DNA of 64,000 nt. Origin: Actinomycetota bacterium. GTDB taxonomy: Bacteria; Actinomycetota; CADDZG01; WHSQ01. The notes beneath the pieces are model-generated. The model saw nothing but the letters and a program-made list of their open reading frames with translations, was not told the DNA's origin and ran no database searches. The DNA is taken from the NCBI GenBank assembly GCA_034667545.1, contig JAXDJR010000015.1:2850-66849 (forward strand). The letters run 5' to 3'. Numbering within the stretch: the first letter of the stretch is position 1; every line of letters begins with the position of its first letter. This document shows, piece after piece, positions 3,253 to 25,332 of the stretch. Position numbers and translations under genes: made by a program.

Positions 3253-3269
3253 TCGTCGACGATCACAAA

Positions 3270-3968: not shown

Positions 3969-3991
3969 CAGATCAGAAGTTGAGAAGCTTC

Positions 3992-4480: not shown

Positions 4481-5563
4481 TCAGCCGCCTCCCAGTTCGA
4501 CCAGCTGACGGCGCCACACCGCCGTTACGTTTCCCCAGGACATGTCTGAGTTGACGATGGCAGACCCTCTCTCCGACACCGCCGGCGCCTCCGAGGACAC
4601 CAGCCGATCCAGGCCCGCCGCGAGGCTTGCCGGAGAAGGATCGGAGAGAAACGCTCCTCCCTTCGAGGCCAGGTAACGTCCCAGAGGATAGGTCGTGGTC
4701 AGGGTGGGAACGCCAACCGAAACCGCTTCCGCCACCGAGTTGCCAAAACCCTCCCAGCGGGAGGGGTAGACAAAGCCGCTGGCAGCAGCGAGCAGGTCCC
4801 ACTTCTCCCTTCCGTACACCGGCGCTTCGATGGTGACCTCGGCCCCCAAACCGAGTCTGCCGATGAGGGCCGCGACGGCTTTCTTTCGCCCTCGCCAGTC
4901 GGGGCCGACCAGCCGCAGGATCGGCCGTGACCCCGGTCCCATCTGGGCGACGCCATGCAGGAGGAGATCAAGGCCCTTGTGCTCGGGGTCGAAACGGCCC
5001 ATCCACAGGACGTATCCGCCGCTCCCCCCATCCCAGCGCACGCCTTCGGGGGGCTCGACACCATTGGGGGCCACCAGCCACGGGCCGGTGTAGCCCAAGT
5101 TCTGCATGTCGTCGCGTTCTGAATCGAAGAACAGGTGCATCGCGCGAGCGCCTTGAACCAGGCTTCTTTCGAAAGCGACCCACCAGGCAAGCTTGAAAAG
5201 CCTCTTCCGGCGAACGATGTGGGGGTCGTAAGCACCACGCGGAGCCAGAATGTAAGGGACGTTCGCGCGTCTGGCGACCGCCCCAGCGGCGACATTGTGA
5301 ACGACCCAGGCGGAATGAAAGATGGCAAGGTCGGCTCCCTCGAAGACCTCGCGCAGCTTCAGTGGAACTCTTGCCCTCCGAACGCCGACATGATCTATCT
5401 GCTCCCAGACGACTGCGGGGTCCCGATCTCTGCTGTCACCCTCGCCAAATGCGATGGACACCTCGAGGCCAGAAGTCGCCAGGCCATGGGCCAAACGGCG
5501 CACGGCGCCGGTCATGCCCCCGTCGCCGACAACTGCGCGGGGGTAGTAGAAGACGATCCTCAT
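4481..5563 (-). CDS. Glycosyltransferase family 4 (GT-B)
   Basis: C-terminal Glycos_transf_1-like region with an EX7E-type motif (YPSRWEGFGNSVAEAVSVGVP). Confidence 0.9.
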   Translation of the reverse strand: MRIVFYYPRAVVGDGGMTGAVRRLAHGLATSGLEVSIAFGEGDSRDRDPAVVWEQIDHVGVRRARVPLKLREVFEGADLAIFHSAWVVHNVAAGAVARRANVPYILAPRGAYDPHIVRRKRLFKLAWWVAFERSLVQGARAMHLFFDSERDDMQNLGYTGPWLVAPNGVEPPEGVRWDGGSGGYVLWMGRFDPEHKGLDLLLHGVAQMGPGSRPILRLVGPDWRGRKKAVAALIGRLGLGAEVTIEAPVYGREKWDLLAAASGFVYPSRWEGFGNSVAEAVSVGVPTLTTTYPLGRYLASKGGAFLSDPSPASLAAGLDRLVSSEAPAVSERGSAIVNSDMSWGNVTAVWRRQLVELGGG

Positions 5564-5603
5564 ATCGCCGCTGCCCTCACCAGTGAAGGCTACCGGCAGG
5601 AAG

Positions 5604-6602
5604 CTACGAGGCGGCGCCCACCGGCGAGGCGCTGATGCGTCCGGCCTTCTCGAGTTCTGATTCGATGAATCTGTAGGTAGATCTCAGACCTTCTTCGAGA
5701 GAGACTGCGGGCTTCCACGCCAGAATCTCCCACAGCTTTGAGTTGTCGCTGTTCCGACCACGCACGCCTTGCGGCTTCGAAACATCGTGGCGCTTCTCGA
5801 TCGTCTTTCCCGCAATCTTGGCCACCATGTCCACCAGGCGGTCCACGCTCACGAGCTCGTCGGTTCCGAGGTTCAGCGGCTGCGAGTGATCCGACTGCAT
5901 CAGCCGAAAGATCCCTTCCACGCAGTCGTTCACGTGCATGAAGGATCTGGTTTGGAGGCCGTCACCCCACACCTCGATCTCTCCTCCGTCCACGGTTAAC
6001 GCCACCTTCCTGCAGATGGCCGCGGGGGCTTTCTCCCTGCCCCCTTCGTAGGTGCCGAGGGGGCCGTAGATGTTGTGGAATCGAGCGACGCGGGTGTCGA
6101 TCTTCCCTTCTTCGGTGTAGTACTGACACAGCTTCTCGGCGTAGAGCTTCTCCCAGCCGTAACCCTCTTCGGGGTCAGCCGGATAAGCATCGTCCTCCTT
6201 GAGTGGCTTTACATCGGGACTCGTTTGCAGATACATCGGATAGATGCATGCCGACGAAGAATAGAAGTGCCTGTCTGCACCGCTGACCCGGGCCGCCTCC
6301 AGCATGTGGGCGTTTATCAGGACGTTATTGCGAGCCACTTCGGCGTGGTTGGCCGTGATGTAGCCGATACCACCCATGTCGGCGGCCAACTGATAAACCT
6401 CGTGGACGTCGTTCGTGGCCTCGAGACAATTGTCATATTCCCTCAAGTCCAGCAGCAGGAACTCGTCAGCCGCCGTGGGTTCGTACTCCGCCTCTTTGAT
6501 GTCAACGCCTCGGACCCAATAGTCCCGGTCTTTGAGGTAATTGACCATGTGATGGCCGATGAACCCACCGGCTCCTGCCACCACTGCTCTTCGCTGACTC
6601 AT
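5604..6602 (-). CDS. GDP-mannose 3,5-epimerase-like NAD-dependent epimerase
   Basis: GAGGFIG Rossmann motif plus blocks I recognise from plant/bacterial GME: LAADMGGIGYI, SSSACIYP, RFHNIYGPLGTYEGGREKAPAAICRK, WGDGLQTRSF, GVRGRNSDN. Good RBS (GCAGGAGG) upstream of ATG 6602. Confidence 0.85.
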   Translation of the reverse strand: MSQRRAVVAGAGGFIGHHMVNYLKDRDYWVRGVDIKEAEYEPTAADEFLLLDLREYDNCLEATNDVHEVYQLAADMGGIGYITANHAEVARNNVLINAHMLEAARVSGADRHFYSSSACIYPMYLQTSPDVKPLKEDDAYPADPEEGYGWEKLYAEKLCQYYTEEGKIDTRVARFHNIYGPLGTYEGGREKAPAAICRKVALTVDGGEIEVWGDGLQTRSFMHVNDCVEGIFRLMQSDHSQPLNLGTDELVSVDRLVDMVAKIAGKTIEKRHDVSKPQGVRGRNSDNSKLWEILAWKPAVSLEEGLRSTYRFIESELEKAGRISASPVGAAS

Positions 6603-6647
6603 GCCTTGGAACCTCCTGCGCTTGGAATTTCGGAAAGCCTTACCCAG

Positions 6648-6803
6648 TTACTTCGGATGAAGTCCGGGATGGGTAAAGCCACAACCGTGAGTTTCTATCG
6701 TTGCCTCTGCGTACAGGGTGCCACAGGGCGCGGTCATGGCAATCAACCATCCACCGTAGGTCCCTGTCACCATCCGCAGGAGGCGTCCGTCTGCTGCGCT
6801 CAT
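6648..6803 (-). CDS. Possible 51-aa coupled small ORF (hypothetical)
   Basis: Its ATG overlaps the TGA of the upstream GT4 gene (ATGA, 6800-6803). It fills most of the otherwise unexplained 197-nt GT4-to-epimerase gap. Third-position GC is only moderate and I recognise no homology. Confidence 0.3.
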   Translation of the reverse strand: MSAADGRLLRMVTGTYGGWLIAMTAPCGTLYAEATIETHGCGFTHPGLHPK

Positions 6804-7963
6804 CGGTTCGTTGTTGGTCCGCCGACGACCTTCGAGTAGACGGCCTCCAGGCGTCGCAGATGGGCCTCCGGGGTGAACTCGGCAGCTGCTCTCTCGAGCG
6901 CCGCAGAACCTGCTTCGAAGCAGAGCCGGTCGTCGGTAGCAAGCGCCTTCATCTTGGCAGCGAGGTCGTGAGGATCGCCGCGCCGGCACATGAATCCCTC
7001 GCCGGAAGAGACCAGTTCCGGCAGACCGCCGCCTTCCGTGACCAGAAGCGGTCGTCCGGCGGCCAAAGCTTCAAGGGCGGCGAGGGGAGCATTTTCGTCC
7101 CACAACGAAGGAAGGACGAAAAAGCGTGATCCCTGAAGCTCCGCCGCAACCTGGTCCCCGGCTAGCTGCCCGAGAAAGTTGGCATTCTGCAGGCCCCTTT
7201 CGGCGGCGAGGTCTTCCAAGGCGGGCAGCGCCGGTCCGTCGCCGCAGATATGAAAGGGAGGGTCCCCGGCCAGGCTTAGGGCCTCCAGCAGGACGTCGAC
7301 GCCTTTCTCGCTCGAAAGCCGACCGAGATAGATCCCGTAGGCGCCCGGCACGGCGCTTCCCGCATGATGATCGGTGAAGTTACGGACCACATCAACGCGT
7401 GATCCATCGAATCCCCAACTGATCATTCGATCGTGCATGAACTGGCTCGGAGTTATGTAGGCCGCCACCTTGTCATCGGTGTGAAACATGAATCGGTGGA
7501 CCCAGAGTGACGAGGCGTAACTCGCTGCCTGCTTTCCGTCGGAAAAGCAATGATGCAGAACCGCGTTCGAGTAGTTGCCTCCTTCGCAGCGATGGCAAAG
7601 CTTGCCTTCGGTGAACATGTAACCGTTGGGGCATCTCAACCTGCAGTTATGTACGGTCATCACCAGCGGGATACCAGCGCGTTGCGCCTCCAGATGCACG
7701 GCAGGGCCGAGGGCCGGGTACGCGTTGTGGAGATGGATGACGTCGGGGCGGAAGGATCGAATGACCCTCCGCAGATCCCCTCTGTCGTGAGAAGACGAAG
7801 CCGTCATGAGGACCGCCGTCGAAAGCCCCCCACCCAGCTCCTCGTTACGGCGACTGAACAGCTCGACCGCGTGCTTCCCCTTTAAGAGCTGGATCTGCTG
7901 CCCGACGTACCTATCCTCGCCGCCCGGCAAACGGTAGAAGCTGTGGGCTATCAAGACTCTCAC
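6800..7963 (-). CDS. Glycosyltransferase family 4 (GT-B) with Cys4 insertion
   Basis: RLSSEKGVDVLLEAL...GDGP...LPSLWDENAPLAALEALAAGRPLL is a typical Glycos_transf_1 region. The N-domain carries CX3CX11CX2C. Confidence 0.9.
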   Translation of the reverse strand: MRVLIAHSFYRLPGGEDRYVGQQIQLLKGKHAVELFSRRNEELGGGLSTAVLMTASSSHDRGDLRRVIRSFRPDVIHLHNAYPALGPAVHLEAQRAGIPLVMTVHNCRLRCPNGYMFTEGKLCHRCEGGNYSNAVLHHCFSDGKQAASYASSLWVHRFMFHTDDKVAAYITPSQFMHDRMISWGFDGSRVDVVRNFTDHHAGSAVPGAYGIYLGRLSSEKGVDVLLEALSLAGDPPFHICGDGPALPALEDLAAERGLQNANFLGQLAGDQVAAELQGSRFFVLPSLWDENAPLAALEALAAGRPLLVTEGGGLPELVSSGEGFMCRRGDPHDLAAKMKALATDDRLCFEAGSAALERAAAEFTPEAHLRRLEAVYSKVVGGPTTNR

Positions 7964-8048
7964 CGGTAGCTCACCAGCCTGATCGGCACGAGAGAAAGCC
8001 TGGATCGGTGGAGGAACCTAAGAGCTGAGAGCCGAAGCCCGATGTGAC

Positions 8049-9737
8049 CTACTTAGGTGCCGGTAGGTCAGCCTGGGACTGGGTGTCGTCCGGATCGAGG
8101 CTCTTGCCTCCGCCTGAGGATTGCCGCGTGGTTGCCGCGCGCGTCTCTTCTCTAGTGGCGCGAGCATCACGCTTGGGCAGATCTTGGTAGTAGGAGTAGT
8201 AGCCGGCGTGGTGACGGTAGGCCCGGGCACGAGACTTCTCCAGGTTGTTGATCACGATGCCGATACGGCGGGCTTGCAGTTGGTCCAGCTGCTCGCGAAC
8301 GTCGTCGGCAGCGGCACGAGTAGACACCGCAGGGTCCACCACGAGCAAAACACCGTCGCTGTGCGGAAGAAGAGAGGCAGTGTCGGCAACCAGCAGGATG
8401 GGGGCCGCGTCCACGATCACGAAATCACTCCGATCACGCAAGTTATCCAGCACTTTCCCCATCGCCTCGGATCCGATGAGCTCTGCTGCATTGTCACGTG
8501 CGCCGCCGCTGAACAGGATCTGCAACTCGTCGATAGAGGAGGGCACTAGCGCGCGGTCGATAGTTGTCTGACCGGTCAGAACCGTCGCAAGTCCGATCGG
8601 AGAGGAGCCTCCGAAGAACTCGTGCAGCCTCGGCTTGCGCAGGTCGGCAGAGAGCAGCGTGACTCGTTTCCCGGCTTGAGCGAGAGCCACAGCCAGGTTC
8701 GCTGCGGTAGTCGTCTTGCCTTCCCCTTCGAATGCACTCGTGACCAAGATCACCTTGGCACCGGTGCGGGATGCCGCGAAGAGCACCCCCGCGCGAAGGG
8801 TCCGATAGGCATCAGCAGCAACCGACTGAGGCATCGATGACGAGAGCAGCACCGGAACACCACGTCCTTGCGAGCCGCGTACTTTTGGAACTACGGCCAG
8901 CACCGAGGCTCCGGCGTGAGCTTGCAACTCTGCCCGGTCCGTGAAGTGCTCGTCCAGACGCTCCCGGAGGAACGCGACCCCTATGCCGAGGGCGAACCCT
9001 ACGAGCACCGCCAGCAGCATGTTCTTGATGAGGCTGGGGCTCGAAGGTGCGGACGGCAGCTCGGCAGGCGTCGTGATATTGCCTACCTGAACGCTGCTGG
9101 CGGGAGTGATGTTGGCGATCTGCCCCTGGAGGAGAGTCTTCCTGTCGCGGAGCGAGTTCTCCTTGTTGTTAAGACTCGCCAGGATTGCCGGATCCGTTGT
9201 GCTAGTGATCTGGTTGGTGACATTTTGAATCTGCGAGTAGAGACGCTTCACGCGCAACTGCAACGGTTGGATCACCGTCTGGACGGTCTGGACCGCCTGT
9301 TGGGTGCGGTACTGAAGGTACGCGGTCGCGAACCCCGCAGCGATCTGCTGGGCCTCAGCAGCCTTCGGTGAGGAATAGGAGATCTGAAGGATCTCGGTGT
9401 TGGTGGGCACCGTGACCGCAAGATTCTGCAACAGCGTCTTGGTGCTCTCCTGTAGCGAAAGATCCTTCAGGACGAGGGAAGCCACGGTCGCAGAAGAAAC
9501 TAGGTTCTTCTCGGTGTCCATGTTGGGGGGTACCGGCTGTCCCTGTTGGATAGCCGTCAAGGAAAACGGTTGCACTTCGACTTGCGCCTGAGACGTATAG
9601 ATCGGGGTTTGCTGGAACGTGAACGCCAGAGCCGACAGGATGACGACTGCAGCGATAGCGAGGACGGACCACTTGCGGTATCTCAGAACCTGTAGGTAGT
9701 CGTTCAGATCGCTACCGGCGCCACCTGCTGAACTCAT
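8049..9737 (-). CDS. Polysaccharide co-polymerase / tyrosine autokinase (Wzz domain fused to CpsD/Wzc-like BY-kinase)
   Basis: Two TM segments flank a long coiled periplasm-like Wzz region. Walker A is EGEGKTTTAANLAVALAQAG and Walker B is FVIVDAAP. A C-terminal tyrosine cluster reads YRHHAGYYSYY. Confidence 0.9.
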   Translation of the reverse strand: MSSAGGAGSDLNDYLQVLRYRKWSVLAIAAVVILSALAFTFQQTPIYTSQAQVEVQPFSLTAIQQGQPVPPNMDTEKNLVSSATVASLVLKDLSLQESTKTLLQNLAVTVPTNTEILQISYSSPKAAEAQQIAAGFATAYLQYRTQQAVQTVQTVIQPLQLRVKRLYSQIQNVTNQITSTTDPAILASLNNKENSLRDRKTLLQGQIANITPASSVQVGNITTPAELPSAPSSPSLIKNMLLAVLVGFALGIGVAFLRERLDEHFTDRAELQAHAGASVLAVVPKVRGSQGRGVPVLLSSSMPQSVAADAYRTLRAGVLFAASRTGAKVILVTSAFEGEGKTTTAANLAVALAQAGKRVTLLSADLRKPRLHEFFGGSSPIGLATVLTGQTTIDRALVPSSIDELQILFSGGARDNAAELIGSEAMGKVLDNLRDRSDFVIVDAAPILLVADTASLLPHSDGVLLVVDPAVSTRAAADDVREQLDQLQARRIGIVINNLEKSRARAYRHHAGYYSYYQDLPKRDARATREETRAATTRQSSGGGKSLDPDDTQSQADLPAPK

Positions 9738-10023
9738 TGATCGGTTCCCCTAAACTTGTCGTGAAAGCATCGTTGTGCACTACCCGTTCCGTACCAATCC
9801 TCCCGGGCGGGGGCCCTGAACCCAACCTCTGCCCCACGTAGAGCCGATACGTTGACGGGAGCAGACCGCCATCCCCGCCACGATATCCGACCGTTGCGGG
9901 CACATCCGGCGAGCAGGGCGACCAGATCTTCCATTGGAAGCGTGGTTACCGGTCCTATATCGGACACTCCCACGAGGTTCTTGAGAATGTGCCCGCTCTG
10001 GTTCCCGGCGAAACTGGCAGTAA

Positions 10024-11100
10024 TCAGACGGGAGGGGGAGCCTTCTTTCGCCCGGGCCAGGGTCTCCGCAGAGCGAAGGCGAGGCGGGCGAGCATGGGCC
10101 CCGGGTCCGACAGGGACTCGTAGCTGTGGATGGTTCCCCGGTGGGGGGCAAGGGCACGGACCGCGGCCCCCGCATCCATCCGTCCCTGTCGAAGGTTCGT
10201 GAGCACGCTGCGAAAATCGCCTTCCATCCACCGGAAGAATCTTCCAGGACGACCCCTCACGGTCGCGACGGCCCCGCCGGTGACGAGGCGGCAATACGAG
10301 GCGGGGAGGTTCACGCCTGCGCCCAACGCCAACGGGAGCGTCCCGTGGACGCGGGGATTCAGGTCGAGCAGATAGTCGCCTGCGAACTCGGCGTGAAAGA
10401 TGCCGTTGTATCCGGCCAGCAATCTCAACAGTCCCGCTTCCGTGTCCTCATCGGGGGAAACGGTGACTGCGGAGGCAGTCGTTCCGCAGGGCATGGGCCA
10501 CACGCGCACGTAGTCCAGATGCACTGCTGCCCTCAATTCCCCCTCCCACATGAGCCCGACAACCGCCCGCAATCTGTCAGAGAGGTAGGGCTGGACGATC
10601 ACCGGACCTTCTTCCTTCAAGGCCTTGGGAAGCTGAGCCGCCGAGTCCACCCGCGCGGCCGAATACCTCTTGAGGGCGGGCTTGATCACCACCGGGTAGT
10701 CGAGCTGGTGGGCGGCTGAAAGAAGCTCGCCGGTAGATCCGAAGGTCTGACTGGGGGGAACCGACAGACCCGCCGCTACGGCGGCCTTGGCACATTCGAC
10801 CTTGTCCATGAGGTGCCTGACCGGAAACTTGAGGGCGACGAGAGCAACATCACTAGTGGGGATGATGGCGGCGTACGAGCCTCTGTCGAACTCCTCCATC
10901 ACCGCTTCGGGATAACCGTCGGTCCCCGCGTAGGGGACGTTAATGCGGGCTGCGCAGAATCGCGACGCTGCAGCCATCGACAACGAACCAGAGACGGTGA
11001 CGGTGGGCTTCCACCCATCGGAAGCCAACGCGCGCACGGTGGATACGGTGCCCCGGGACTGACCGCTCCCTCCGTGGGTCACGAGAACTCGCCTAGACAC
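10024..11100 (-). CDS. ATP-grasp domain protein (carboxylate-amine/thiol ligase-like)
   Basis: The pre-ATP-grasp N-domain is followed by YPVVIKPALKRYSAARV and PVIVQPYL blocks typical of ATP-grasp enzymes. The GTG start overlaps the upstream ORF stop by 8 nt. Confidence 0.8.
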   Translation of the reverse strand: MSRRVLVTHGGSGQSRGTVSTVRALASDGWKPTVTVSGSLSMAAASRFCAARINVPYAGTDGYPEAVMEEFDRGSYAAIIPTSDVALVALKFPVRHLMDKVECAKAAVAAGLSVPPSQTFGSTGELLSAAHQLDYPVVIKPALKRYSAARVDSAAQLPKALKEEGPVIVQPYLSDRLRAVVGLMWEGELRAAVHLDYVRVWPMPCGTTASAVTVSPDEDTEAGLLRLLAGYNGIFHAEFAGDYLLDLNPRVHGTLPLALGAGVNLPASYCRLVTGGAVATVRGRPGRFFRWMEGDFRSVLTNLRQGRMDAGAAVRALAPHRGTIHSYESLSDPGPMLARLAFALRRPWPGRKKAPPPV

Positions 11101-11911
11101 GGCCTTCGGCCTCCATACCGTGCATCTCGTGCGTCTCGGCTACTTTCGCCAGCCACGCCGCCCGGTTCTCAGGGATCTTGCGGCGCGTGCCCAAGATCGC
11201 TTTGACTATCGGACAGCTGGACTTCGTTTCGAACCGGAATCTCGCTCGCCGCGCCAGGATGACGGGATTGCGGATGCCTTTTACGACGAACCATCCATCG
11301 ACGAGCGCCATAGCACTTGGCTCCCAGCGAGACTCTGCAGCTGCACGCGCCCCTTTAATGACGGCATCTTTGACCGGACCAAAGAGCCGCGCCGCCATCT
11401 CGACGCCGGCGGGATCGGCGGCCAGCAACTCTCTTATGTTCTTTTCCTCGATGCCCTCCCAGTTCGGACGACCGCCCCATTTGGTGCCGTTGAGGACCAG
11501 CTTGAAAAGGCCCTCGGCCCCCGGCCGCAGCCGGCGGAAGCCCCGCTGATCCATCTCGGAGAGGCCCTCTAGGTCCTCAATCACGAACAAGGTCGAGCCC
11601 CGGAAAATGCGCCTCTCTTTCACGCTCATCTCGAGGAATGCTGCCGCCCCCTGTGGAAAGGCAACCAGGTTGAGCCCTCCGGGGATGTGGCGGCAGACCG
11701 CCGCGGGCCCCAACCTCTCGCGCAAAGCCCAGTCCAGGAATTCGTTCTCGATGCTGTTCCACTGCGCCGAGGGTGCTGCCGAATCGACATCCCCTACGCC
11801 TGAAAGTGCGGAGTCGACGTTCTTCCACACCAGCCACTCATCCGACACCGTGCTCAAGGTGCGCAGCAAAGGAAGCCAGGGCGAGGAGGGTGTTTCGAGT
11901 GAGCCTTCCAC
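11093..11911 (-). CDS. Hypothetical protein, weak nucleotidyltransferase-like GxGDxD signature
   Basis: 272-aa ORF with coding-like composition, translationally coupled to the ATP-grasp gene (GTGTCTAG overlap). The only recognisable element is LSGVGDVDSAAP. Confidence 0.6.
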   Translation of the reverse strand: MEGSLETPSSPWLPLLRTLSTVSDEWLVWKNVDSALSGVGDVDSAAPSAQWNSIENEFLDWALRERLGPAAVCRHIPGGLNLVAFPQGAAAFLEMSVKERRIFRGSTLFVIEDLEGLSEMDQRGFRRLRPGAEGLFKLVLNGTKWGGRPNWEGIEEKNIRELLAADPAGVEMAARLFGPVKDAVIKGARAAAESRWEPSAMALVDGWFVVKGIRNPVILARRARFRFETKSSCPIVKAILGTRRKIPENRAAWLAKVAETHEMHGMEAEGRV

Positions 11912-12080
11912 GCGTATCCTCCTTGGGCTGTATCGACCGGCTTTTGCGGCTCCATCCGCAGCGCGAACGAGCCCCGCTCCGGGAGGAACGGCAGCACTAG
12001 GATACGAGTGAATCAGAGCCGCCTCTTAGCCCCCCACTTGCTAAGACGAGCGCTGACATCGCTAGGAGGTTTCAACACCC

Positions 12081-12899
12081 ATGATCGATACCCAGGTCCT
12101 TCGCCGGGCGCGGTTCCGAAGCAAGATCTTGCGACGCCCCACGGTTTGGGCCAGGCACCGTGGGATACAGCGACACGATGCGATCTTGGCGAGCTATCCG
12201 CGATCGGGCACTACGTGGATGCGATTCCTCCTCTCTCAGGCCTTGTCGGGCCAATCCTCCGAGTTCAAAGCGATCAGAGGAATCGTTCCGTACGTGGGCC
12301 GGCACAGGCACGCGCTATCGATCCTGCCCGGAGGCGGCAAGCTTATGTACAGCCACGATCTGCTTAGCAAAGACGTCACCGACAGGGCCATCTACGTGGT
12401 GAGGGACGCGCGCGATGTTGCCCTTTCGGAATTCAACTGGCAGAAGCGCATCGGGGTCTACGAAGGCGAGCTCGATCCGTTCTTAAGAGACTTCGTGTCG
12501 GGTCGGGGAAGCCCGTTCGGTTCGTGGGGGGCTCATGTCGACGGCTGGTTTGACGCCGATCGGATCGCCGATGATCGTCTGAAGGTTGTGAAGTTCGAAG
12601 ACCTCAAGAAGGACGCGCCCGGCGTTCTGGCATCCGTACTCTCGTTCCTGCGCGTGACGGTGCCCGAGGCTGAGATCGCCCAAGTGGTGGAGAGCAATTC
12701 GGTCGAGATGATGCGTCAGAAAGAGGATCGCGCGCCAGAGGGCTCCTTCAAGAAGCGAGTGGTCAAACGGAATGTTCGCTTCGTGAATGCGGGGTCCGTG
12801 GGTAAATGGCAGAGAAACCTGAACCCCACCCAAGAACAGCTCATCGAAGAAGCCTTCGGATCGCAATTGCAGCGGCTCGGCTATGCGCTTCACTCGTAG
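12081..12899 (+). CDS. PAPS-dependent sulfotransferase (Sulfotransfer_1-like)
   Basis: 5'-PSB loop YPRSGTTWMRFLL and 3'-PB motif YVVRDARDVALSEF. Confidence 0.85.
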   Translation: MIDTQVLRRARFRSKILRRPTVWARHRGIQRHDAILASYPRSGTTWMRFLLSQALSGQSSEFKAIRGIVPYVGRHRHALSILPGGGKLMYSHDLLSKDVTDRAIYVVRDARDVALSEFNWQKRIGVYEGELDPFLRDFVSGRGSPFGSWGAHVDGWFDADRIADDRLKVVKFEDLKKDAPGVLASVLSFLRVTVPEAEIAQVVESNSVEMMRQKEDRAPEGSFKKRVVKRNVRFVNAGSVGKWQRNLNPTQEQLIEEAFGSQLQRLGYALHS

Positions 12900-12910
12900 C
12901 GCCCGTATGG

Positions 12911-17925: not shown

Positions 17926-17936
17926 CCGAGTAAAGA

Positions 17937-18827
17937 TCAGGCGATGTTCCAGCCGTCGAAGTCGTTTCCCAGTAGGACCCGCAGCCGTCGAATGTCCGAT
18001 GAGAACTCTGCTTCCAGTTCGGCGCGCAGAGAATCCGGGATAACCGCCTCGGAAGATTCGTAGACGCTCTGCGCGGGCTTGCCCAACATCTGTTTGACCC
18101 GATTGGGAACCAGGCGAGGGATCTTGACAGTAGAGAACACGCGCTTCTTGAACCAGCGACGGCTGTTCCCTACCCAGGCCGGATAGGCCAAGCGCCGCTC
18201 AGATGTAAAGAACTCCTGCTCCAGCACCTCGGACTTCCAATCAGCGCGCACGCCGAGGAAGGAGTAGACGCGCTCGAGAGTTTGTACTCGAGTCGAGCGC
18301 AAAGCCTCCGAAGTGATGATGAGCATCTGATCGGTGCGGAAATGCGAAAGATATTGATCCAGCTGCATCGCGTACTTGCTGAAGTTGATGTAGTCGGGAT
18401 TCGTTTGGACCGCCTGAGCTAGGGGCGCGGTTTCGGTGCCGAAGGCCACGTTGTGAACGTAGTGAGAGCGAAGGCGATCTATCGGATTGCGCACCACGTA
18501 TATGAGGCGCGCCTCGGGAAGATAGCGCGCGATGAGCTCTGCAGAACCTGAATAGCGGGGAAACTTGGTGTAGCTGGTTGAGGCCTCACCTACTGCGGCT
18601 ACCCCGGGACCGGCGTCGGCAAAGAGGCGCTGATACCAGGCGAAACCTCGCTCCCAGTTGATGCCGGCGGTGAAGAAGTCCAGCTCTTTGATGTCGGGCA
18701 TGAAGACCTGCGGATGCGACCGCAGATATTCGTAGAGGCTCGTGGTTCCCGACTTCTGAGCGCCAATAACGAGAAAGTCGGGAAGCCGGAGCTTGCCTGT
18801 AGGTGTTGGATAGTCCGAGGGGCTCAC
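17937..18827 (-). CDS. PAPS-dependent sulfotransferase
   Basis: 5'-PSB FLVIGAQKSGTTSLYEYL and 3'-PB YVVRNPIDRLRSHY. The GTG start overlaps the stop of the upstream sulfotransferase (GTGA). Confidence 0.85.
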   Translation of the reverse strand: MSPSDYPTPTGKLRLPDFLVIGAQKSGTTSLYEYLRSHPQVFMPDIKELDFFTAGINWERGFAWYQRLFADAGPGVAAVGEASTSYTKFPRYSGSAELIARYLPEARLIYVVRNPIDRLRSHYVHNVAFGTETAPLAQAVQTNPDYINFSKYAMQLDQYLSHFRTDQMLIITSEALRSTRVQTLERVYSFLGVRADWKSEVLEQEFFTSERRLAYPAWVGNSRRWFKKRVFSTVKIPRLVPNRVKQMLGKPAQSVYESSEAVIPDSLRAELEAEFSSDIRRLRVLLGNDFDGWNIA

Positions 18828-19855
18828 TCAGAACCGTCGCTTGGCGAACTTTCCGACAGAGAGCGGAGATGGTTTCCCGCCTTACGAGTTGCCAGCGAGT
18901 AGCGCAACATCAGCGGCAGCGTCAACGAAGTCACGAGCAGCTTGTCTCGTCCGGGCATCTCGTCCTTCCATCTGTTGTCCTCACGAACCGGCACCTGACC
19001 AAGCCGGAACCGATCTGGGTTGCCGGACACAGTGTGGTTGCCGCCGAGGCTAACCGTGTGATCGTCGGCAAAAGGCAGTTGCGCGCCTGCATCGCCGACC
19101 AGGGATGTGATTGCGCGAACCAACTCACGGGGACGCGAGCAGAAATCGTGGTAATCGATCAGCATCGAGCGATCTGGTCTCTGAGCTCTGCGAACAGCAT
19201 CCGCCGCGAGATTTCGGCGGATCCATTGAAACGCACTGGCCGAGATCCCGGTGGGTGCCATAACCGCAGGCTGGTTGCGGTCCGGGTTGGCTTTCACCTT
19301 CGATTGCGAGTAAGCCATGGCGCGAGGATCACGTACGAGGTGGACGAAGAATGGTTCGACGTTGCGGACCGAGCCCAACAAAGCTGCGTCCCAGGGGCGC
19401 TTGGAAGAATCCACGATGACCGAGGCTCCAGTCACTGCTTTGATCGCCTCATACAGATCGCCCATCAGTGCACCGTGAGCTTGTATCTGTCCGGGAACAT
19501 TGTCCTTAGTTGTCTGATGGAGGAGCTGCCACGTACGCCAAGTCCCCGAGATCTGCCTCTGACGTGCCATGACAGCCCGGGCCGTTGCAGAGGGCTCTGA
19601 GCCGGCAACCTTGTCGAGGACACGGGACCAGATCTCACAACTCTCGAACGACTTCCCACACCCGCAGAATCGTCCTTGGTCGAGCCGCTGCCACAGAAAA
19701 CGAAGCTCTCCCGCGGAAAAGAACCCTGCGACCTCGTTCAGGACGTTGTCCAGCACTGTGCTGCCGCAGCGGGGGGCGCCCATGATGTAAAGCACTGTGA
19801 TCGGCTCATCCCGCGCCGGGGACGCGGCCGAAGCGTGGGGGTTGGGTCCGTCCAT
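18824..19855 (-). CDS. Sulfotransferase family protein (Sulfotransfer_3-like)
   Basis: P-loop-like 5'-PSB LYIMGAPRCGSTVLDNVL and 3'-PB HLVRDPRAMAYS. Confidence 0.8.
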   Translation of the reverse strand: MDGPNPHASAASPARDEPITVLYIMGAPRCGSTVLDNVLNEVAGFFSAGELRFLWQRLDQGRFCGCGKSFESCEIWSRVLDKVAGSEPSATARAVMARQRQISGTWRTWQLLHQTTKDNVPGQIQAHGALMGDLYEAIKAVTGASVIVDSSKRPWDAALLGSVRNVEPFFVHLVRDPRAMAYSQSKVKANPDRNQPAVMAPTGISASAFQWIRRNLAADAVRRAQRPDRSMLIDYHDFCSRPRELVRAITSLVGDAGAQLPFADDHTVSLGGNHTVSGNPDRFRLGQVPVREDNRWKDEMPGRDKLLVTSLTLPLMLRYSLATRKAGNHLRSLSESSPSDGSE

Positions 19856-20101
19856 GTGGCCTTCCTTCGTGTGATCGCTCCTGGAGGAAGCGTCACTCAG
19901 CTTCGCACGCTATCGCGGCGCCTGGCCCCAAACCTACCCACCCTGAGCGTGCGATGGTGCAGGGGCTCGGCGGCCGCGTTCAGCCATCCAGCCCGATAAG
20001 GCAGGGCCCCGGGGGGGCATGGGAATTGCTTGGCACGGCTCCGAGTAGAGTTTGGCTCCTAGAACGATGGGGAGAAAAGCGGTGTCAGAGGCCTCAAGGG
20101 G

Positions 20102-22891
20102 GTGTCGAGGCTACGCGCGCGCCAGTTTGCGGCGCGGATCGTCCGCAGCCCGATGCACAAGTCTCAGTCGCCGAGCCTTTCGAGGCTCGGCCCAACCTCC
20201 GGGAGGCGACAGACCATCGTGATCTACCTCGAGGTCGGGGCACTCATCGTGGTGGTCGCCTTGATCTCTGTGTCCGACCTGATCTATCGGCGGGTGACCA
20301 AATCCGGCCGCCGGCGAGGCCGGGCCTCCGTGCGAGGCGCCCGAGCGGCAGTGCTTCGTTCGCAATCCGGGGGCGGGCCCTCGCCCAGGAGTGCGCCGGC
20401 TCAGCCGTCGGCAAGGACCTCTCCTTCCGTGCCACCGCCCGCTCCAGGAACAAGTGAGTTCGTGCGGGTAAAGCTCCGCTCCGGGCGCATCGTGGAGGGA
20501 TGGAGGGAAGCAGGCACCCTGGAAAGCTCCGGGGGCTTAACGGACGCCTTCGATCTGGATGTCTCCAAGGCGTTCGATCCCAACGGCAACCCCATGAGTT
20601 TTCCCAGCAACTCCTTCATCGTCTTTACCTCCCAGGTCGAGCGTCTGGAAGTCCTCGAATCCTCTTCGGAAAGGAGTTCGAGCCGCGAGGTGGCCGCGGA
20701 ACGCCAGCGAGCCTCTGGGGCCACGACCGCCCCCATCGCGCCCGTGCGTGATTCGGGATCCCAAACTGCACGGAAAGAAGAGGACACAGCGAACCCTGAG
20801 GGGCCGGACACCAGCCCCGCTCCGGACGAGTCATCCGACGGTCTGGGCCGGCTGATCCAACTGCCAGAGCCCGAGGACCTGAACGCTCCAGCAGCAGTGC
20901 TCGCTCCTGTCCCTGAGCCCGCTCCTGAGGGTTCTCAGATCAGGCATATCGAGCCCAAGGCAGCGAGTCCGGAAACCCCCTCAGTGCCCGCTCCGCCCGC
21001 TCCCCATAAGAAGCGGCGAGCCCGCCCCTTGTTATGGGTGGGAGCTATCGCCGCGCTCCTCATCGTGGCCCTGATCGTCGACGGGATGTATACGTTCTTC
21101 GCCCTGTCCAACTCCCTCAACTCGGCGCGGGGTGATCTGCGACGTGGCAGCAACGCTCTCCTCTCGGGCCACTACCAGTCGGCGCGCGCGGAATTTCTAA
21201 AGGCTGCATCCGCTTCCGGGACCGCCGATGGGCTCCAAGGCCATCCTGCGTTCTGGGTGGTGTCCCACCTTCCGCGAGTACACCGGGATGCAGTTGCTCT
21301 AAAGGCCTTGGGTAAGTCCTCGGACCTGTCCTCGCGGGCCGGCCTCGACGCCGTGCAGGCGATTCGAGCGATGGGAGCCCCCGCCCAGGGTTTGGCCGCC
21401 GCTATCTACAGCCATGGTCAGATCAATCTCAACGCCGCTCAGAGAGGCGTGCCCTTCTTCATAGACATCGAGGACAAGCTCAACAAGGCCTATGTCAGCT
21501 TGAGGAGCGCTCCTCAACCGGTCTTCGGGGCAGTGCAGTCGGCCCTGTCGCTCGCCCTGACCAAGGTTTCCGAGGCGAGGGACGCGATTCACAAGACCCG
21601 CAACCTGGTGCAGGCCCTGCCGTCCCTATTCGGACGCGACCAGACTCGCCATTACCTGCTGCTGTTCGACAATCCGAGCATCGCCCGGGGCTCGGGTGGA
21701 CCTATCGACCTGTTCGGCATCCTCACCGCAAAGTCGGGTTCCCTGCGCGTGGGATCGATCCACCCGGTCGACGACCTTGCCGCCACGGCGGCACCGAGAA
21801 CTCTGTCCCCCGCTTGGTTCCGCAAGGCATACGGGCCCGCCGGCGCGTTCGATAGTTGGGACCAGATCACTCGGTCGCCGAGCTTCGACTCCGTTGCGCC
21901 GATCGCCCAGAGCCTGTATCAGTCGGCGACGGGCACGACAGTCGACGGTGTGGTCGAGATGGATCCCGTGGCGCTGGGTCTGATGACACGTGCAGTGGGA
22001 TCAGTCCGACAGCCGGGATACAACGTCTCAGTCAACGCCCGTAACGCAGTGCAGACCCTCACGCACGACGTCTATCTGCACTTCGGAACCGACCAACGTG
22101 GCCGGGAGGAGTGGGTGGCCGGGTTGATCGAACAGGTTTGGAACAGAGTGAGCCGGGGGGACGCAAGCGCTGCCGAGCTGACCACAGCCCTCGGGGATTC
22201 CTCGAGGGGGTCTCACTTCACGATGTACTCGAACAGCCCGTCGGACGAACGAGCCTTGAACCAAGTCGGGGTGGGCGCCACATTCTCGACATTCGAGCCC
22301 AATGTGCAGATGGCCGTCACCAACAACAGCACGCTGTCCAGGCTCGGCTATTACGAGAAGCGAAGCGTGAGCACGAGAGTGCAGCTGACCAGCCGCGGCC
22401 AAGCCTACGTGACCTCAACCTTCCGACTCAGCAACACCGCTCCCAAAGGCGTCGCCAAGGTGCTGGTGCACAACCTTCAGTCCGCCCAGGACCGCTCCGA
22501 CCTGAGCTTCATCCTCCCCACCCACGCGAAGGTGCAGGAAGTCTCGTTGGCAGGCAAGTCCCAGCGCTACGACCTTGGGATCGAGGGGACGAATCCTCGC
22601 TTCACGCTGCCGCTGTCGGTGGCCCCGGGGAGCACGGTCCGAGTGGTCTGTTCCTACGTCATCCCACACGCCTTCAAGCTGACCGGCGCAGGAGGCGTGT
22701 TCCGATTCGCAACAGTGCCGCAGGCTGCAGCCAAACCGGATGCAACCTCCGTCACCGTGATCCCACCCGGCGGGCTCGAAGTCGTCAAGGGGGGATCGGT
22801 CGGAGGTGAGGTGGACGGATCGTCTTACGTAGCGAGCGACACTGCCGGGGGTCCCCTGACGGTGGCAGTCAAGTTGGCGCCACCCCCGTAA
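20102..22891 (+). CDS. DUF4012 domain membrane protein with long N-terminal extension
   Basis: The C-terminal ~600 aa after the TM helix LLWVGAIAALLIVALIVDGMYTFFAL contains HYLLLFDNPSIARGSGGPIDLFG, resembling the DUF4012 core seen in actinobacterial EPS loci. The N-terminal ~300 aa is Pro/Ser-rich with one extra TM helix. Start is uncertain. Confidence 0.8.
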   Translation: MSRLRARQFAARIVRSPMHKSQSPSLSRLGPTSGRRQTIVIYLEVGALIVVVALISVSDLIYRRVTKSGRRRGRASVRGARAAVLRSQSGGGPSPRSAPAQPSARTSPSVPPPAPGTSEFVRVKLRSGRIVEGWREAGTLESSGGLTDAFDLDVSKAFDPNGNPMSFPSNSFIVFTSQVERLEVLESSSERSSSREVAAERQRASGATTAPIAPVRDSGSQTARKEEDTANPEGPDTSPAPDESSDGLGRLIQLPEPEDLNAPAAVLAPVPEPAPEGSQIRHIEPKAASPETPSVPAPPAPHKKRRARPLLWVGAIAALLIVALIVDGMYTFFALSNSLNSARGDLRRGSNALLSGHYQSARAEFLKAASASGTADGLQGHPAFWVVSHLPRVHRDAVALKALGKSSDLSSRAGLDAVQAIRAMGAPAQGLAAAIYSHGQINLNAAQRGVPFFIDIEDKLNKAYVSLRSAPQPVFGAVQSALSLALTKVSEARDAIHKTRNLVQALPSLFGRDQTRHYLLLFDNPSIARGSGGPIDLFGILTAKSGSLRVGSIHPVDDLAATAAPRTLSPAWFRKAYGPAGAFDSWDQITRSPSFDSVAPIAQSLYQSATGTTVDGVVEMDPVALGLMTRAVGSVRQPGYNVSVNARNAVQTLTHDVYLHFGTDQRGREEWVAGLIEQVWNRVSRGDASAAELTTALGDSSRGSHFTMYSNSPSDERALNQVGVGATFSTFEPNVQMAVTNNSTLSRLGYYEKRSVSTRVQLTSRGQAYVTSTFRLSNTAPKGVAKVLVHNLQSAQDRSDLSFILPTHAKVQEVSLAGKSQRYDLGIEGTNPRFTLPLSVAPGSTVRVVCSYVIPHAFKLTGAGGVFRFATVPQAAAKPDATSVTVIPPGGLEVVKGGSVGGEVDGSSYVASDTAGGPLTVAVKLAPPP

Positions 22892-23014
22892 ACGGGCTGC
22901 GCAGCTGGTGCTCGCCCGGGGAGTGAACCTAGTTATGCCGCGCTTATTCGACTACACGGGATGGATTGCCCCAATGGGGATCCGGCTGACCGGTCTCTTA
23001 CGGCGTGCGGCAGC

Positions 23015-23872
23015 CTAGTCGCGTCCATGCGCCGCCAACTGTTTGACGAGCAGGAAAACGAAGCGCGGATTACGGTACAGGTACCTCTTCCACAACCTGC
23101 GAGGCTCGGAGCAGAGACGGAAGAGCCACTCGAGCCCCATCCGCTGCATGATGCTCGGAGCCTGCTTCTTCACGCCGGCAAGGAAGTCAAAAGCGGCGCC
23201 GACCCCGACCATCACCGCAGGAACCTTCCCGCGGCGAGCTGCCATCCAAAGCTCCTGCTTAGGCGTACCGAGACCTACGAATACGATCCCCGCGCCCGAG
23301 TCGATGATCTCCTGATCCACTTGGCGATCTTCCTCTTCGGTCGGGGCCCTGAACGGCGGAGCGAACCGATACACCACCTGGAGTTTCGGAAAACGAGCTT
23401 TTAGGTTGGCGATGAAGGACTCGAGCACGTCCGGAGTGCCGCCGTAGAAACCCACAGGAACTCCAGCCTCGGCCGCGCGCTCACACAGGATCGGGGTGAG
23501 GTCGGGCCCGTACACCCGGGTGGCGTCCCGTAGACCGAGCAGCTTGAGACTCCAGACAAGCGGCATACCGTCAGAGGTGACGAGATCGGCCAGGTTCATG
23601 ATCTGCTGGAAGGCTTCACTGGCGCGTGACTCCATCACGTTGTTGACCGAGGCCACGCAGACGTAACGAGACTCGCGTTGCTTGCCCCACGCGACGATGC
23701 GAGAGGCGGCATCTTCATAGTTGGTGCGATCCACACGCATCCCAGCGATGTGACGAGACTCGAGAGGCCGCGCCTCGGAGACGACGACCGGCGATCGTAG
23801 GTCTGGGCTCGACGGTCCCAGATCGGGTGAGGTGCTCAAGATCAGTACGCGCCCTTCCCGCCCAGGACGCAT
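23015..23872 (-). CDS. WecB/TagA/CpsF family glycosyltransferase (GT26)
   Basis: VCVASVNNVMES...DGMPLVW...GVPVGFYGGTPDVLESFIANLKARFPKLQVV...GLGTPKQELWM are typical of the family. An alternative TTG start at 23839 lies 2 nt after the upstream stop. Confidence 0.85.
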   Translation of the reverse strand: MRPGREGRVLILSTSPDLGPSSPDLRSPVVVSEARPLESRHIAGMRVDRTNYEDAASRIVAWGKQRESRYVCVASVNNVMESRASEAFQQIMNLADLVTSDGMPLVWSLKLLGLRDATRVYGPDLTPILCERAAEAGVPVGFYGGTPDVLESFIANLKARFPKLQVVYRFAPPFRAPTEEEDRQVDQEIIDSGAGIVFVGLGTPKQELWMAARRGKVPAVMVGVGAAFDFLAGVKKQAPSIMQRMGLEWLFRLCSEPRRLWKRYLYRNPRFVFLLVKQLAAHGRD

Positions 23873-25332
23873 CCAAGTGTCTTGAAGAGGATGTAAAGGT
23901 CCAGGGACAACGACCAGTTCTCGATGTAGAAGGCATCCATACGAACCGCCTCTTCAGCGGCGACATCGCTCCGGCCGTTGGTTTGCCACCAACCGGTGAT
24001 GCCCGAGCGGATCTGGTGCCGAGCTTCCATGAGCTGGGGATTGGCCGCCACCTGCTCAGCCGGCAGAGGCCGAGGCCCCACCAGGCTCATGTCGCCGATG
24101 ATGACGTTCAAAAGCTGAGGGATCTCGTCCAGGCTGAAGCGCCGCAGGAACCGGCCGACTGTGGTCAGGCGAGGGTCCCTCTGGAGCTTGAAGAATGCGT
24201 CGGTTGTCTTCACAGACATCTTGTCGGCATTCGGGACCATTGTTCTGAACTTGCACATGGTGAAGAGACGTCCATCCTTGGTCACACGCTTATGACGGAA
24301 CAGGACCGGGCCTCTCGACGACACCGCGATCGCAGCGGCTATCACCAAGCAGATCGGCAGCAGCAGCAGAGACAGCAGCGTGGCGGCAAACACGTCGAAG
24401 ACTCTCTTCACGAACGCTTGGGGGCCGGCGAGTCGCACGGGCCGAAGGGAGAGCGTGAGGATCGATCCGAGCGGCTGCACCGAAACGCGTGAGGTCAAGA
24501 TGTTATTCAGGTTCGCCGTGACACGCACGGCCACTCCCTCTTGGCGGGCTGCCTGGACCGCCAGCACCATCTCCGAAGAACCCACCGCGGTGGAAGCGAC
24601 GAAGATGCAATCAGCGGAATACTCACGGACTACCTCGCGCAGATTCTCGATCGTCCCGATGACCGGAAGCCCGTCTGGTGACGCCGTGGGACCGGCGACG
24701 CTAACGAAGCCCAGTGGCGAGAATCCAAGGCCTCGCTCTTGAAGAAGATGTGCGAGGCGGCCCGCCTCATGGTTCGTGCCCACGACGACCGTGCGCAACG
24801 CCAAGCGGCCGGTTGCCCGCAGCTTTGCGAGGCGCCAACGCCACGCCCGCCGGGTCAGAAGCTCGCCGAAGACCGCGAAACCCCAAAGAAGCGCCACCCA
24901 CTCGCGAGAGAACGCAGTTTGGGACCAGAAACTAGTAGCGATTATCCCGAGGATGCCGACGCTTGCGGCTCCCACGATCCGTTGCAGTTCGTCGACCGCT
25001 GAGATGCGGTGCGGCGAGTACAGAGAAAAGACGCGGAAGATCAACACCCACAGCAACGGTGCGGTCACGCCGAGCGTGATGTAAGGACCGTGGATCGTGG
25101 CTTGAAAGCGAACCAGATAGGCAGCGATGAACGCTGCCGACAAAACCAGGGCATCGGAGATGACTAGCCCTGCGGTGACCCGCCGATACATCCGGCGGAC
25201 ATCTATGCCGGAGCTGGAGGAATCCTCGGGCGCATCAAGCTGGATGGCAAGGGGGTCGGACTCGACGTCCTGAACGATCCGAAGGCCGTCATTGACCGTA
25301 GTCGAGTAAGCCTCGCCGGGGGTCTCTATCAT
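23842..25332 (-). CDS. Polyprenyl-phosphate sugar phosphotransferase (priming glycosyltransferase, WbaP/CpsE-like)
   Basis: N-terminal TM bundle, central Rossmann-like domain, and a C-terminal bacterial sugar transferase domain (KRVFDVFAATLLSLLLLP...CKFRTMV...DPRLTTVGRFLRRFSLDEIPQLLNVIIGDMSLVGPRP). Confidence 0.9.
   Translation of the reverse strand: MIETPGEAYSTTVNDGLRIVQDVESDPLAIQLDAPEDSSSSGIDVRRMYRRVTAGLVISDALVLSAAFIAAYLVRFQATIHGPYITLGVTAPLLWVLIFRVFSLYSPHRISAVDELQRIVGAASVGILGIIATSFWSQTAFSREWVALLWGFAVFGELLTRRAWRWRLAKLRATGRLALRTVVVGTNHEAGRLAHLLQERGLGFSPLGFVSVAGPTASPDGLPVIGTIENLREVVREYSADCIFVASTAVGSSEMVLAVQAARQEGVAVRVTANLNNILTSRVSVQPLGSILTLSLRPVRLAGPQAFVKRVFDVFAATLLSLLLLPICLVIAAAIAVSSRGPVLFRHKRVTKDGRLFTMCKFRTMVPNADKMSVKTTDAFFKLQRDPRLTTVGRFLRRFSLDEIPQLLNVIIGDMSLVGPRPLPAEQVAANPQLMEARHQIRSGITGWWQTNGRSDVAAEEAVRMDAFYIENWSLSLDLYILFKTLGCVLGGKGAY

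Follow-up and report, generated by a model that had tools for sequence, protein, structure and literature searches.

Sulfation is common in environmental exopolysaccharides (EPS) (PMC10483923), and chemical analyses commonly detect sulfated polymers in granular sludge and microbial mats; outside cyanobacteria and some marine bacteria, few genes have been tied to such polymers in the environment. For one system of this kind only have sulfation, genes and regulation alike been established by experiment: synechan, the product of the xss cluster of Synechocystis PCC 6803, which comprises two sulfotransferases, eight glycosyltransferases, Wzx, Wzy and a polysaccharide co-polymerase (PCP), under regulation by XssS, XssR and XssQ (PMC8205485). 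Among Actinomycetota, the wps-1 cluster of Actinoplanes missouriensis (WpsA-K), published in June 2026, encodes two sulfotransferases, a kinase-like protein, a GT26 glycosyltransferase and Wzx/Wzy/Wzz proteins; deletion mutants of the cluster are disturbed in forming sporangia, and the sulfation is a prediction (PMC13390465). Reports on Vibrio sp. KMM 8419 (PMC11641403) and Cobetia marina KMM 1449 (PMC11766843) tie sulfated polymer structures to sulfotransferase clusters, and for one Streptomyces EPS a bulk 'sulfate content' has been reported without genetics. Here, we describe a polysaccharide locus (positions 4481-25332) in a 64-kb stretch of DNA, referred to below as the window, from a metagenome-assembled genome (MAG) of an uncultured member of the Actinomycetota. 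It combines three sulfotransferases, a GDP-mannose 3,5-epimerase (hereafter GME) and a gene module termed M1 with Wzx/Wzy-type assembly genes, and it probably makes a sulfated, L-sugar-containing and further-decorated polysaccharide.

A comparison with synechan had been proposed in an earlier note on this DNA, and it holds as far as the kinds of protein are concerned: both loci are Wzx/Wzy-dependent, set sulfotransferases of distinct subfamilies amid glycosyltransferases and carry a two-component kinase/regulator pair. The xss cluster, in contrast, resides on a megaplasmid of a Gram-negative cyanobacterium and has an outer-membrane polysaccharide export (OPX) protein and the STAND regulator XssQ, features of which the window has none, whereas the epimerase and M1 of the window are absent from xss. 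Pfam detected no STAND or OPX family among the ORFs (open reading frames) of the locus or its flanks, and the regulators of the window are of the LuxR type; the locus, which also lies in a different type of cell envelope, therefore resembles xss in kinds of protein only and is not a member of that system. With wps-1, the locus shares actinobacterial Wzx/Wzy/Wzz proteins, a GT26 enzyme, a heparan-sulfate-type and a second-subfamily sulfotransferase and a protein-kinase-like protein, and in both cases a sulfated EPS is predicted from genes. The wps-1 cluster differs in its GT2, GH26, methyltransferase, DUF4262 and adjoining CysN/C-like genes and, according to its published gene content, lacks the GME, the protein NT272, the P-loop/ATP-grasp module, the third sulfotransferase and the DUF4012 protein of the window. 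No Actinoplanes protein was present among 73 homologues of APH317, the kinase-like protein of the window, so WpsI is not a close relative of it. The Vibrio and Cobetia capsule loci belong to a different phylum and cell envelope.

Two statements of the earlier note need revision in this light. Its claim that no actinobacterial Wzx/Wzy locus of this sort had been characterised is outdated by wps-1 (PMC13390465), and its description of sulfated bacterial EPS as rare was overstated, given the Vibrio and Cobetia loci, the frequency of sulfation in environmental EPS and the many sulfotransferase relatives reported below. The concept of sulfotransferase-bearing Wzx/Wzy loci is already established; what appears to be new, as far as searched, is the combination of three sulfotransferases with a GME, the linkage of one sulfotransferase family to GME across lineages, and M1. 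Literature searches for a link between GME and sulfotransferases, and between Acidobacteria and sulfotransferases or EPS, found nothing relevant.

The three sulfotransferases recognised in the earlier note are supported by Pfam, and alignment to solved structures indicates that each keeps both motifs for binding 3'-phosphoadenosine 5'-phosphosulfate (PAPS), namely the 5'-phosphosulfate-binding (5'-PSB) loop and the 3'-phosphate-binding (3'-PB) motif. ST1 (12081-12899, + strand) is a cytosolic-SULT-like enzyme (Pfam Sulfotransfer_1, 7e-29; SULT1C2/1A1 in the PDB, 1e-16), with PRSGTTW as its 5'-PSB loop, RDARDVALS as its 3'-PB motif and His92 aligned with the catalytic histidine of SULTs; it is also similar to the glycopeptide sulfotransferases Teg12/14 and StaL. 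Across 46 homologues, Y39-P-R-S-G-x-T-W46, H92 and R108-D-x-R..S116 are invariant, which argues against gene decay. ST2 (17937-18827, - strand; Pfam Sulfotransfer_1 and _3) is of the heparan sulfate type: its closest PDB entry is 3rnl (5e-25), heparan sulfate 3-OST and NDST match at 1e-14 to 1e-16, its motifs are GAQKSGTT (5'-PSB) and VVRNPIDRLRS (3'-PB), and one of its glutamates aligns with that of the 3-OST 'EKTPSY' segment. ST3 (18824-19855, - strand; Pfam Sulfotransfer_3, 1e-10) carries GAPRCGST and LVRDPRAMAYS, which align with the sulfotransferase domain of CurM (4gox). The three proteins belong to three different subfamilies, all predicted to be soluble and with intact PAPS-binding motifs. 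A simple hydropathy scan of the window proteins, the basis of all membrane segments given here, found none in ST1, ST2 or ST3, nor in NT272, APH317 or the ATP-grasp protein of M1, and the lack of membrane segments in the sulfotransferases fits sulfation of a lipid-linked repeat unit in the cytoplasm.

When an alignment of the ST1 family was scanned against species-representative genomes, at least 540 relatives were found, and the best 80 loci were analysed. These loci are mostly from Acidobacteriota (Terriglobia, Ca. Sulfotelmatobacter) and Actinomycetota, together with one MAG labelled Poribacteria, one labelled Binatia and two labelled Verrucomicrobiia. Linkage was counted by tblastn of the window proteins against the ST1-seeded loci within a distance of 10 kb; by this measure, ST3 homologues occur near ST1 homologues, often as neighbours, in 20 of 86 loci, and GT26 homologues in 43 of the 86.

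The sugar that these enzymes may modify is suggested by the gene at 5604-6602 (- strand), an NAD epimerase by Pfam, which the earlier note had named a GDP-mannose 3,5-epimerase homologue. It matches the plant GME structures 8sg0 and 2c59 with an E value of 1e-100 in an alignment of nearly full length (residues 5-320), and it keeps the segments SSACIYP, YGWEK (the YGxEK pattern) and GGREKAPAA, which we take to supply the Ser/Tyr/Lys residues of the short-chain dehydrogenase/reductase family and the Cys/Lys acid-base residues in the same roles as in AtGME. The naming in the earlier note accordingly stands, and the protein is, as far as such alignments can tell, a genuine GME. It resembles the enzymes of plants and of Methylacidiphilum fumariolicum, and the only characterised bacterial GME has been linked to lipopolysaccharide synthesis in a verrucomicrobium (PMC8787198, PMC6678494). 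In 33 of the 80 genome loci, the ST1 homologue has a GME homologue (50-75% identity) no more than 10 kb away, nearly always on the same strand, although these 33 loci are dominated by related Acidobacteriota genomes and are not 33 independent events. The linked loci come from Actinomycetota, Acidobacteriota and MAGs labelled Poribacteria, Verrucomicrobiia and Binatia, and this spread across lineages argues for a functional link between ST1 and GME.

A third partner is GT4b (6800-7963, - strand), a GT4 glycosyltransferase by Pfam, whose homologues (49-60% identity) stand beside or near ST1 and ST3 homologues in the Actinomycetota loci L011, L013, L015 and L018, and also near both in an unclassified MAG locus (L020), so that ST1, ST3 and GT4b form a recurring trio in Actinomycetota loci. 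From the ST1-GME linkage and this trio, we infer that the residue sulfated by ST1, and probably by ST3, is L-galactose or L-gulose, which GT4b may install. The distribution of the linked genes further suggests that sulfated polymers of L-galactose or L-gulose occur widely among uncultured bacteria, many of which come from soil. One Acidobacteriaceae MAG locus (L039) has the gene order Wzy, carbamoyltransferase, GT26, GME, Sulfotransfer_3, ST1-like, carbamoyltransferase; its GT26-GME-sulfotransferase-ST1 block thus lies between two carbamoyltransferase genes (Carbam_trans_N and _C; L039 4951-12954), which suggests that the polymer made there is both carbamoylated and sulfated.

The other tailoring genes had been read in the earlier note as separate enzymes scattered through the locus, a view that operons and fusions in relatives contradict: the ATP-grasp protein, the two kinase-like proteins, the protein listed as unknown and one of the two GT4 enzymes belong together. 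This module, M1, is predicted to consist of the glycosyltransferase GT4a (4481-5563, - strand; Pfam GT4), NT272 (11093-11911, - strand), P-loop205 (12911-13528, + strand), APH317 (13525-14478, + strand) and, as its last gene, an ATP-grasp-like ligase (10024-11100, - strand). The folds given in that note for the 'two unrelated kinase-fold proteins' hold, being of the P-loop and APH types, whereas their bounds were refined to those above from Joint Genome Institute (JGI) gene calls, longer overlapping ORFs being unlikely as genes. For the ATP-grasp ligase, the gene is present and gives weak ATP-grasp matches (Pfam ATPgrasp_Ter, 4e-6; NCBIfam PRK12767, 1e-9), which fall under the curated cut-offs; its only apparent sequence match in the PDB, a designed nanobody fusion, was discarded as spurious. 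Homologues of this protein (41-53% identity) always follow NT272 or kinase genes in relatives.

NT272, the former unknown protein, has no sequence match in Pfam, NCBIfam or the PDB. Its AlphaFold2 (AF2) model is confident (pLDDT 93.5), and the top ~30 Foldseek hits are all nucleotidyltransferases of the Pol-beta type (best E value 0.0098), with low TM-scores of 0.36-0.41; the residues G40-D41-x-D43, E94 and D121 are invariant in a small, sharply bounded family of 294 clusters among 1.84 billion representative proteins. P-loop205 (205 aa), which begins 12 nt past the ST1 stop codon, has the Walker A motif GPDGSGKST; the only full-length PDB matches to a profile of it were thymidylate kinases (3lv8, 7e-7), with no APS (adenosine 5'-phosphosulfate) kinase among them, and Pfam and NCBIfam returned weak dTMP-kinase matches only. 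APH317 (317 aa) overlaps the P-loop205 gene by 4 nt and has the APH/choline-kinase fold (pLDDT 93.1) with an invariant kinase set (K111, E125, H195-G-D197, N202, D214). Foldseek relates it to corramycin phosphotransferase (1e-5), 5-methylthioribose kinase, macrolide and aminoglycoside phosphotransferases and the kinase of WbdD. It shares the eukaryotic-like kinase fold and full catalytic residues with WbdD, APH, macrolide phosphotransferases and 5-methylthioribose kinase but differs from them in its low identity (8-16%) and in that its family is usually fused to a thymidylate-kinase-like domain. Many of these structural relatives phosphorylate sugar hydroxyls, and WbdD acts on the terminus of the O-antigen; the full catalytic set of APH317 and its similarity to sugar-hydroxyl kinases, including this glycan kinase, count in favour of a decorating role.

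Gene order in relatives gives M1 its coherence. The APH317 family is small and environmental (73 clusters), and about half of its members are fusions of P-loop and APH domains, as in L018, L019, L090 and L091. In L090 and L091, GT4a, NT272 (in two copies), a fused P-loop~APH protein and the ATP-grasp protein form one operon in this order, and GT4a homologues (51-55% identity) lie directly upstream of NT272 homologues in these two loci and in L008 and L009. Fusions among representative proteins join NT272-Ploop-APH, NT272-Ploop, Ploop-NT272, Ploop-NT272-Ploop-APH and GT4a-NT272 (proteins P0368, a triple fusion of 799 aa, P0381, P0452, P0338 and P0320, the last being GT4a-NT272); some of them could be merges made in gene calling, but the variety of orders argues for real fusions. 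Fusion of NT272 to a glycosyltransferase suggests that M1 acts on a glycan. In Actinomycetota, M1 usually stands beside sulfotransferases, whereas L008 and L009, the latter from a Gemmatimonadaceae MAG, hold GT4a, NT272, ATP-grasp and P-loop genes in polysaccharide loci with no sulfotransferase within 10-kb flanks of the M1 genes, and M1 is therefore best read as a single module separate from sulfation. In the Actinomycetes MAG locus L018, two diverged NT272/P-loop/(APH)/ATP-grasp copies (2883-5589 and 16956-20794) flank the ST1-ST3-GT4b trio. Our best guess at the chemistry is that a sugar hydroxyl is phosphorylated and that nucleotidyl- or phospho-transfer and an ATP-grasp ligation come next.

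Assembly of the polymer would rest on a full set of core genes, all of which the ORF list and Pfam placed where the earlier note had located them, with agreeing family assignments throughout. The priming phosphoglycosyl transferase (23842-25332, - strand) matches Bac_transf (2e-64) and CoA_binding_3 and has five hydrophobic segments, and beside it lies the GT26 (WecG/TagA/CpsF) glycosyltransferase (23015-23872, - strand; Pfam 8e-60). The Wzx flippase (14650-16212, + strand; Polysacc_synt, 3e-18) has 13 hydrophobic segments, and the putative Wzy-type polymerase (16423-17925, + strand; Wzy_C, 3e-14) has 10; sequence does not distinguish polymerases from ligases among Wzy_C proteins, so its polymerase role is a predicted one. 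A Wzz-type co-polymerase is fused to a P-loop ATPase resembling bacterial tyrosine kinases (BY-kinases) (8049-9737, - strand; Pfam Wzz 1e-8, GNVR weak, AAA_31 5e-12), with two hydrophobic segments bracketing the Wzz domain. Its translation contains Walker A (GEGKTT), A' (LLSADLRKP) and B (FVIVDAAP) motifs and a C-terminal tyrosine cluster, YRHHAGYYSYYQD; in the Walker A' motif, the first Asp is replaced by Ser (SADLR). The DUF4012 membrane protein (20102-22891, + strand; Pfam 5e-27 over residues 513-658 of a 929-aa ORF) has hydrophobic segments at residues 36-63 and 306-337, N-terminal to the conserved domain. The first ~300 residues of this ORF (window 20102-21100) are of low complexity and rich in Pro, Ser and Ala, and its true start codon may lie downstream of 20102. 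The family also occurs in L019, L090 and L091. The topology of the core proteins agrees with their assigned roles. Taken together, a WbaP-type primer, one GT26 and two GT4 enzymes point to a repeat unit with about four sugars, and polymerisation would proceed block-wise, from a lipid-linked unit outside the membrane, as predicted from the gene families. The locus as a whole can be regarded as a chromosomal, complete Wzx/Wzy-dependent heteropolysaccharide locus.

In the pathway that we propose, the repeat unit would be assembled on the cytoplasmic side of the membrane with undecaprenyl phosphate as its carrier, and there L-galactose (or L-gulose) would enter it from the GDP-sugar, probably through GT4b. 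ST1, ST2 and ST3 would then O-sulfate up to three positions with cytoplasmic PAPS before the unit is flipped, the L-sugar or a position next to it being the most likely target of ST1 and ST3. Independently of sulfation, M1 would attach a further substituent by ATP-dependent steps, at best guess by phosphorylating a sugar hydroxyl that is then built into a phosphodiester- or amide-linked group. The decorated unit would be flipped, polymerised and controlled in length, with the DUF4012 protein acting at some late step, and expression would probably be gated by the right-hand PAS kinase/LuxR pair, which is apparently co-transcribed with the priming transferase. A bolder, joint reading, which we put forward tentatively and believe less readily than the sulfated polysaccharide itself, holds that M1 is an undescribed glycan-decorating pathway and that ST1-family enzymes with GME form a conserved cassette for sulfated L-galactose or L-gulose. 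Under this reading, the lipid-linked repeat unit would receive from M1 a non-sugar substituent, joined through a phosphate or an amide and added by a logic like that of phosphocholine or phosphoramidate decoration, without homology to either.

Several observations weigh against these readings. ST1 has Arg at the position of the 5'-PSB Lys of eukaryotic enzymes, an Arg that the sulfotransferase domain of bacterial CurM also has, and NAG replaces the C-terminal RKG, while no catalytic base of ST3 could be assigned from its alignment. No ATP sulfurylase or APS kinase gene was found in the 64-kb window, so the supply of PAPS is assumed; sulfation of the polymer is accordingly a prediction, and the acceptors of the three enzymes are at most inferred. 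The source organism is uncultured, the best 80 ST1-family genome loci all derive from MAGs, and the excess of related Acidobacteriota among those linked to GME has been noted above. Operon structure was deduced from gene spacing alone, and within M1 the below-cut-off scores of the ATP-grasp protein and the low TM-scores of NT272 loosen both assignments.

On one alternative reading, the polysaccharide would be made but unsulfated, with the sulfotransferases acting on a glycolipid, a small metabolite or a protein, or idling for want of PAPS. Besides the missing PAPS-synthesis gene and the two departures of ST1 from the SULT consensus at PAPS-contact positions, the affinity of ST1 to cytosolic small-molecule SULTs and to Teg12/14 and StaL, and of ST3 to a domain of a polyketide synthase, could be read in this way. 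We nevertheless consider it unlikely, since the three sulfotransferases are embedded amid Wzx, Wzy and glycosyltransferases, here and, across phyla, in syntenic as well as distant loci, ST2 has its nearest relatives among carbohydrate (heparan sulfate) sulfotransferases, the PAPS motifs of the ST1 family are invariant, contrary to what decay would leave, and ST1 keeps company with a nucleotide-sugar epimerase and not with natural-product genes. More plausible, if still somewhat improbable, is a different destination of the product, as a wall-anchored secondary glycopolymer or capsule of a teichuronic-acid-like kind, or as a protein-linked glycan with the Wzy_C protein serving as ligase. The Wzy_C domain is common to polymerases, O-antigen ligases and O-oligosaccharyltransferases, and GT26 (TagA/WecG) enzymes build the linkage units of wall polymers. 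In addition, the DUF4012 family turns up in connection with a paper on a capsular polysaccharide/EPS locus of Bifidobacterium longum 105-A (PMC5412050). The locus, on the other hand, includes a Wzz-BY-kinase co-polymerase, which is typical of polymerising Wzy systems, Pfam finds no LCP-family ligase among its genes, and its primer is of the Bac_transf (WbaP/CpsE) and not the TagO/WecA type. This alternative concerns where the polymer ends up and is compatible with sulfation.

A third alternative would draw M1 into sulfation as a route of donor synthesis, in which NT272 and the P-loop protein stand in for ATP sulfurylase and APS kinase and make PAPS, a PAPS-like or a CDP-amidate-like 3'-phosphonucleotide. 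PAPS synthases are fusions of ATP sulfurylase and APS kinase, and NT272 and the P-loop protein are likewise repeatedly fused; P-loop205 starts 12 nt after the ST1 stop, and M1 is usually next to sulfotransferases in Actinomycetota. We regard this as very improbable. L008 and L009 have M1 genes with no sulfotransferase within 10 kb, the placing of NT272, joined to GT4a in one protein or encoded directly after it, speaks for action on the glycan, and no sulfate-binding or ATP-sulfurylase signature was found with Pfam or NCBIfam. The narrower proposal that P-loop205 serves as an APS-kinase surrogate was rejected, its matches being to thymidylate kinases only and its gene occurring in sulfotransferase-free loci.

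If the reading of ST1-family enzymes and GME as a conserved cassette holds, sulfated L-sugar chemistry like that of agar or porphyran would occur widely among uncultured Actinomycetota and Acidobacteriota, many of which come from soil. The locus and its relatives provide candidate genes for sulfated polysaccharides of uncultured bacteria, many of these likewise from soil. Sulfated polymers bind water and cations, and a part in soil aggregation, in metal binding and in the tolerance of desiccation would therefore be plausible. The ST1-GME link yields a structural prediction, a sulfated L-galactose or L-gulose residue, and the locus offers a compact set of enzymes for designer sulfated glycans. 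M1, with its confident models, invariant catalytic residues and clear genomic partners, would be a tractable target in the search for a new glycan modification.

The locus is flanked by kinase/LuxR-regulator pairs on both sides, as the earlier note had observed and Pfam supports. On the left are a sensor histidine kinase (1660-3252, + strand; HisKA and HATPase_c) and a LuxR-type response regulator (3270-3884, + strand; Response_reg and GerE). The right pair consists of a LuxR-type response regulator (25329-26018, - strand; Response_reg and GerE) and a PAS-HisKA-HATPase sensor kinase (26135-27322, - strand; Pfam) with no hydrophobic segment, both co-oriented with the priming transferase and GT26 genes; the stop of the regulator gene overlaps the start of the transferase gene, which suggests that the pair and the transferase share one transcript. 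A scan of 3900-23800 for promoter and terminator consensus sequences returned fewer sites than shuffled sequence and was uninformative on operons.

The locus is syntenic in the related metagenome contigs L002-L004, with protein identities of 59-94%, and a protein encoded on a JGI metagenome contig matches ST1 with 100% identity. The left kinase adjoins the locus in the related contigs L001 and L002 and in one further relative, and the regulator is syntenic as well. The stretch from Wzy to DUF4012 varies: relatives have two or three sulfotransferases, ST2 is missing from the syntenic L002, and a beta-helix protein absent from the window is present in relatives at the position that ST2 occupies in the window. 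These beta-helix genes lie between the sulfotransferases and DUF4012 (L002 17126-19129, with Laminin_G_3; L004 13361-14386; L005 6510-8021, with Malectin and NosD), and their products may be hydrolases or lyases that trim the polymer. L001 is 93% identical in DNA over window 4011-20154 and 73% identical over the left pair (window 1991-3868 against L001 5-1882); at the protein level, identity is 69% for the left kinase, 76% for GT4a and 91-100% for the other locus proteins, so that the left border looks like a recombination mosaic between closely related strains.

The remainder of the window is core chromosome, with genes for a BldD-like regulator and a primary-type sigma factor as well as dnaG, dgt, ppdK, glyS, uppS, recO, era, phoH, dnaJ, hrcA, lepA, holA, comEC and leuS. 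GC content is even across the window (0.59-0.67), giving no compositional hint of a foreign island. The only RNA gene in an Rfam scan of the window is a tRNA-Asn (GTT) (27711-27785, - strand), located at the right-hand edge of the locus, with the genes for the PAS kinase and the primary-type sigma factor on either side. Although tRNA genes are frequent integration points, the uniform GC content, the housekeeping flanks and a synteny in relatives that includes the left kinase/regulator pair leave a horizontally acquired island unsupported. Between the ATP-grasp and the Wzz-kinase genes lies a 286-nt gap (9738-10023), where an overlapping 186-aa ORF has no match in Pfam or NCBIfam; at the equivalent position in L001, JGI calls a 52-aa ORF with no family assigned. 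Just upstream of the left two-component pair, the BldD-like developmental regulator (HTH_3 and BldD-like_C; 988-1464, - strand) is consistent with membership of the class Actinomycetes, and it is of interest in that the Actinoplanes sulfotransferase cluster is tied to sporangium development.

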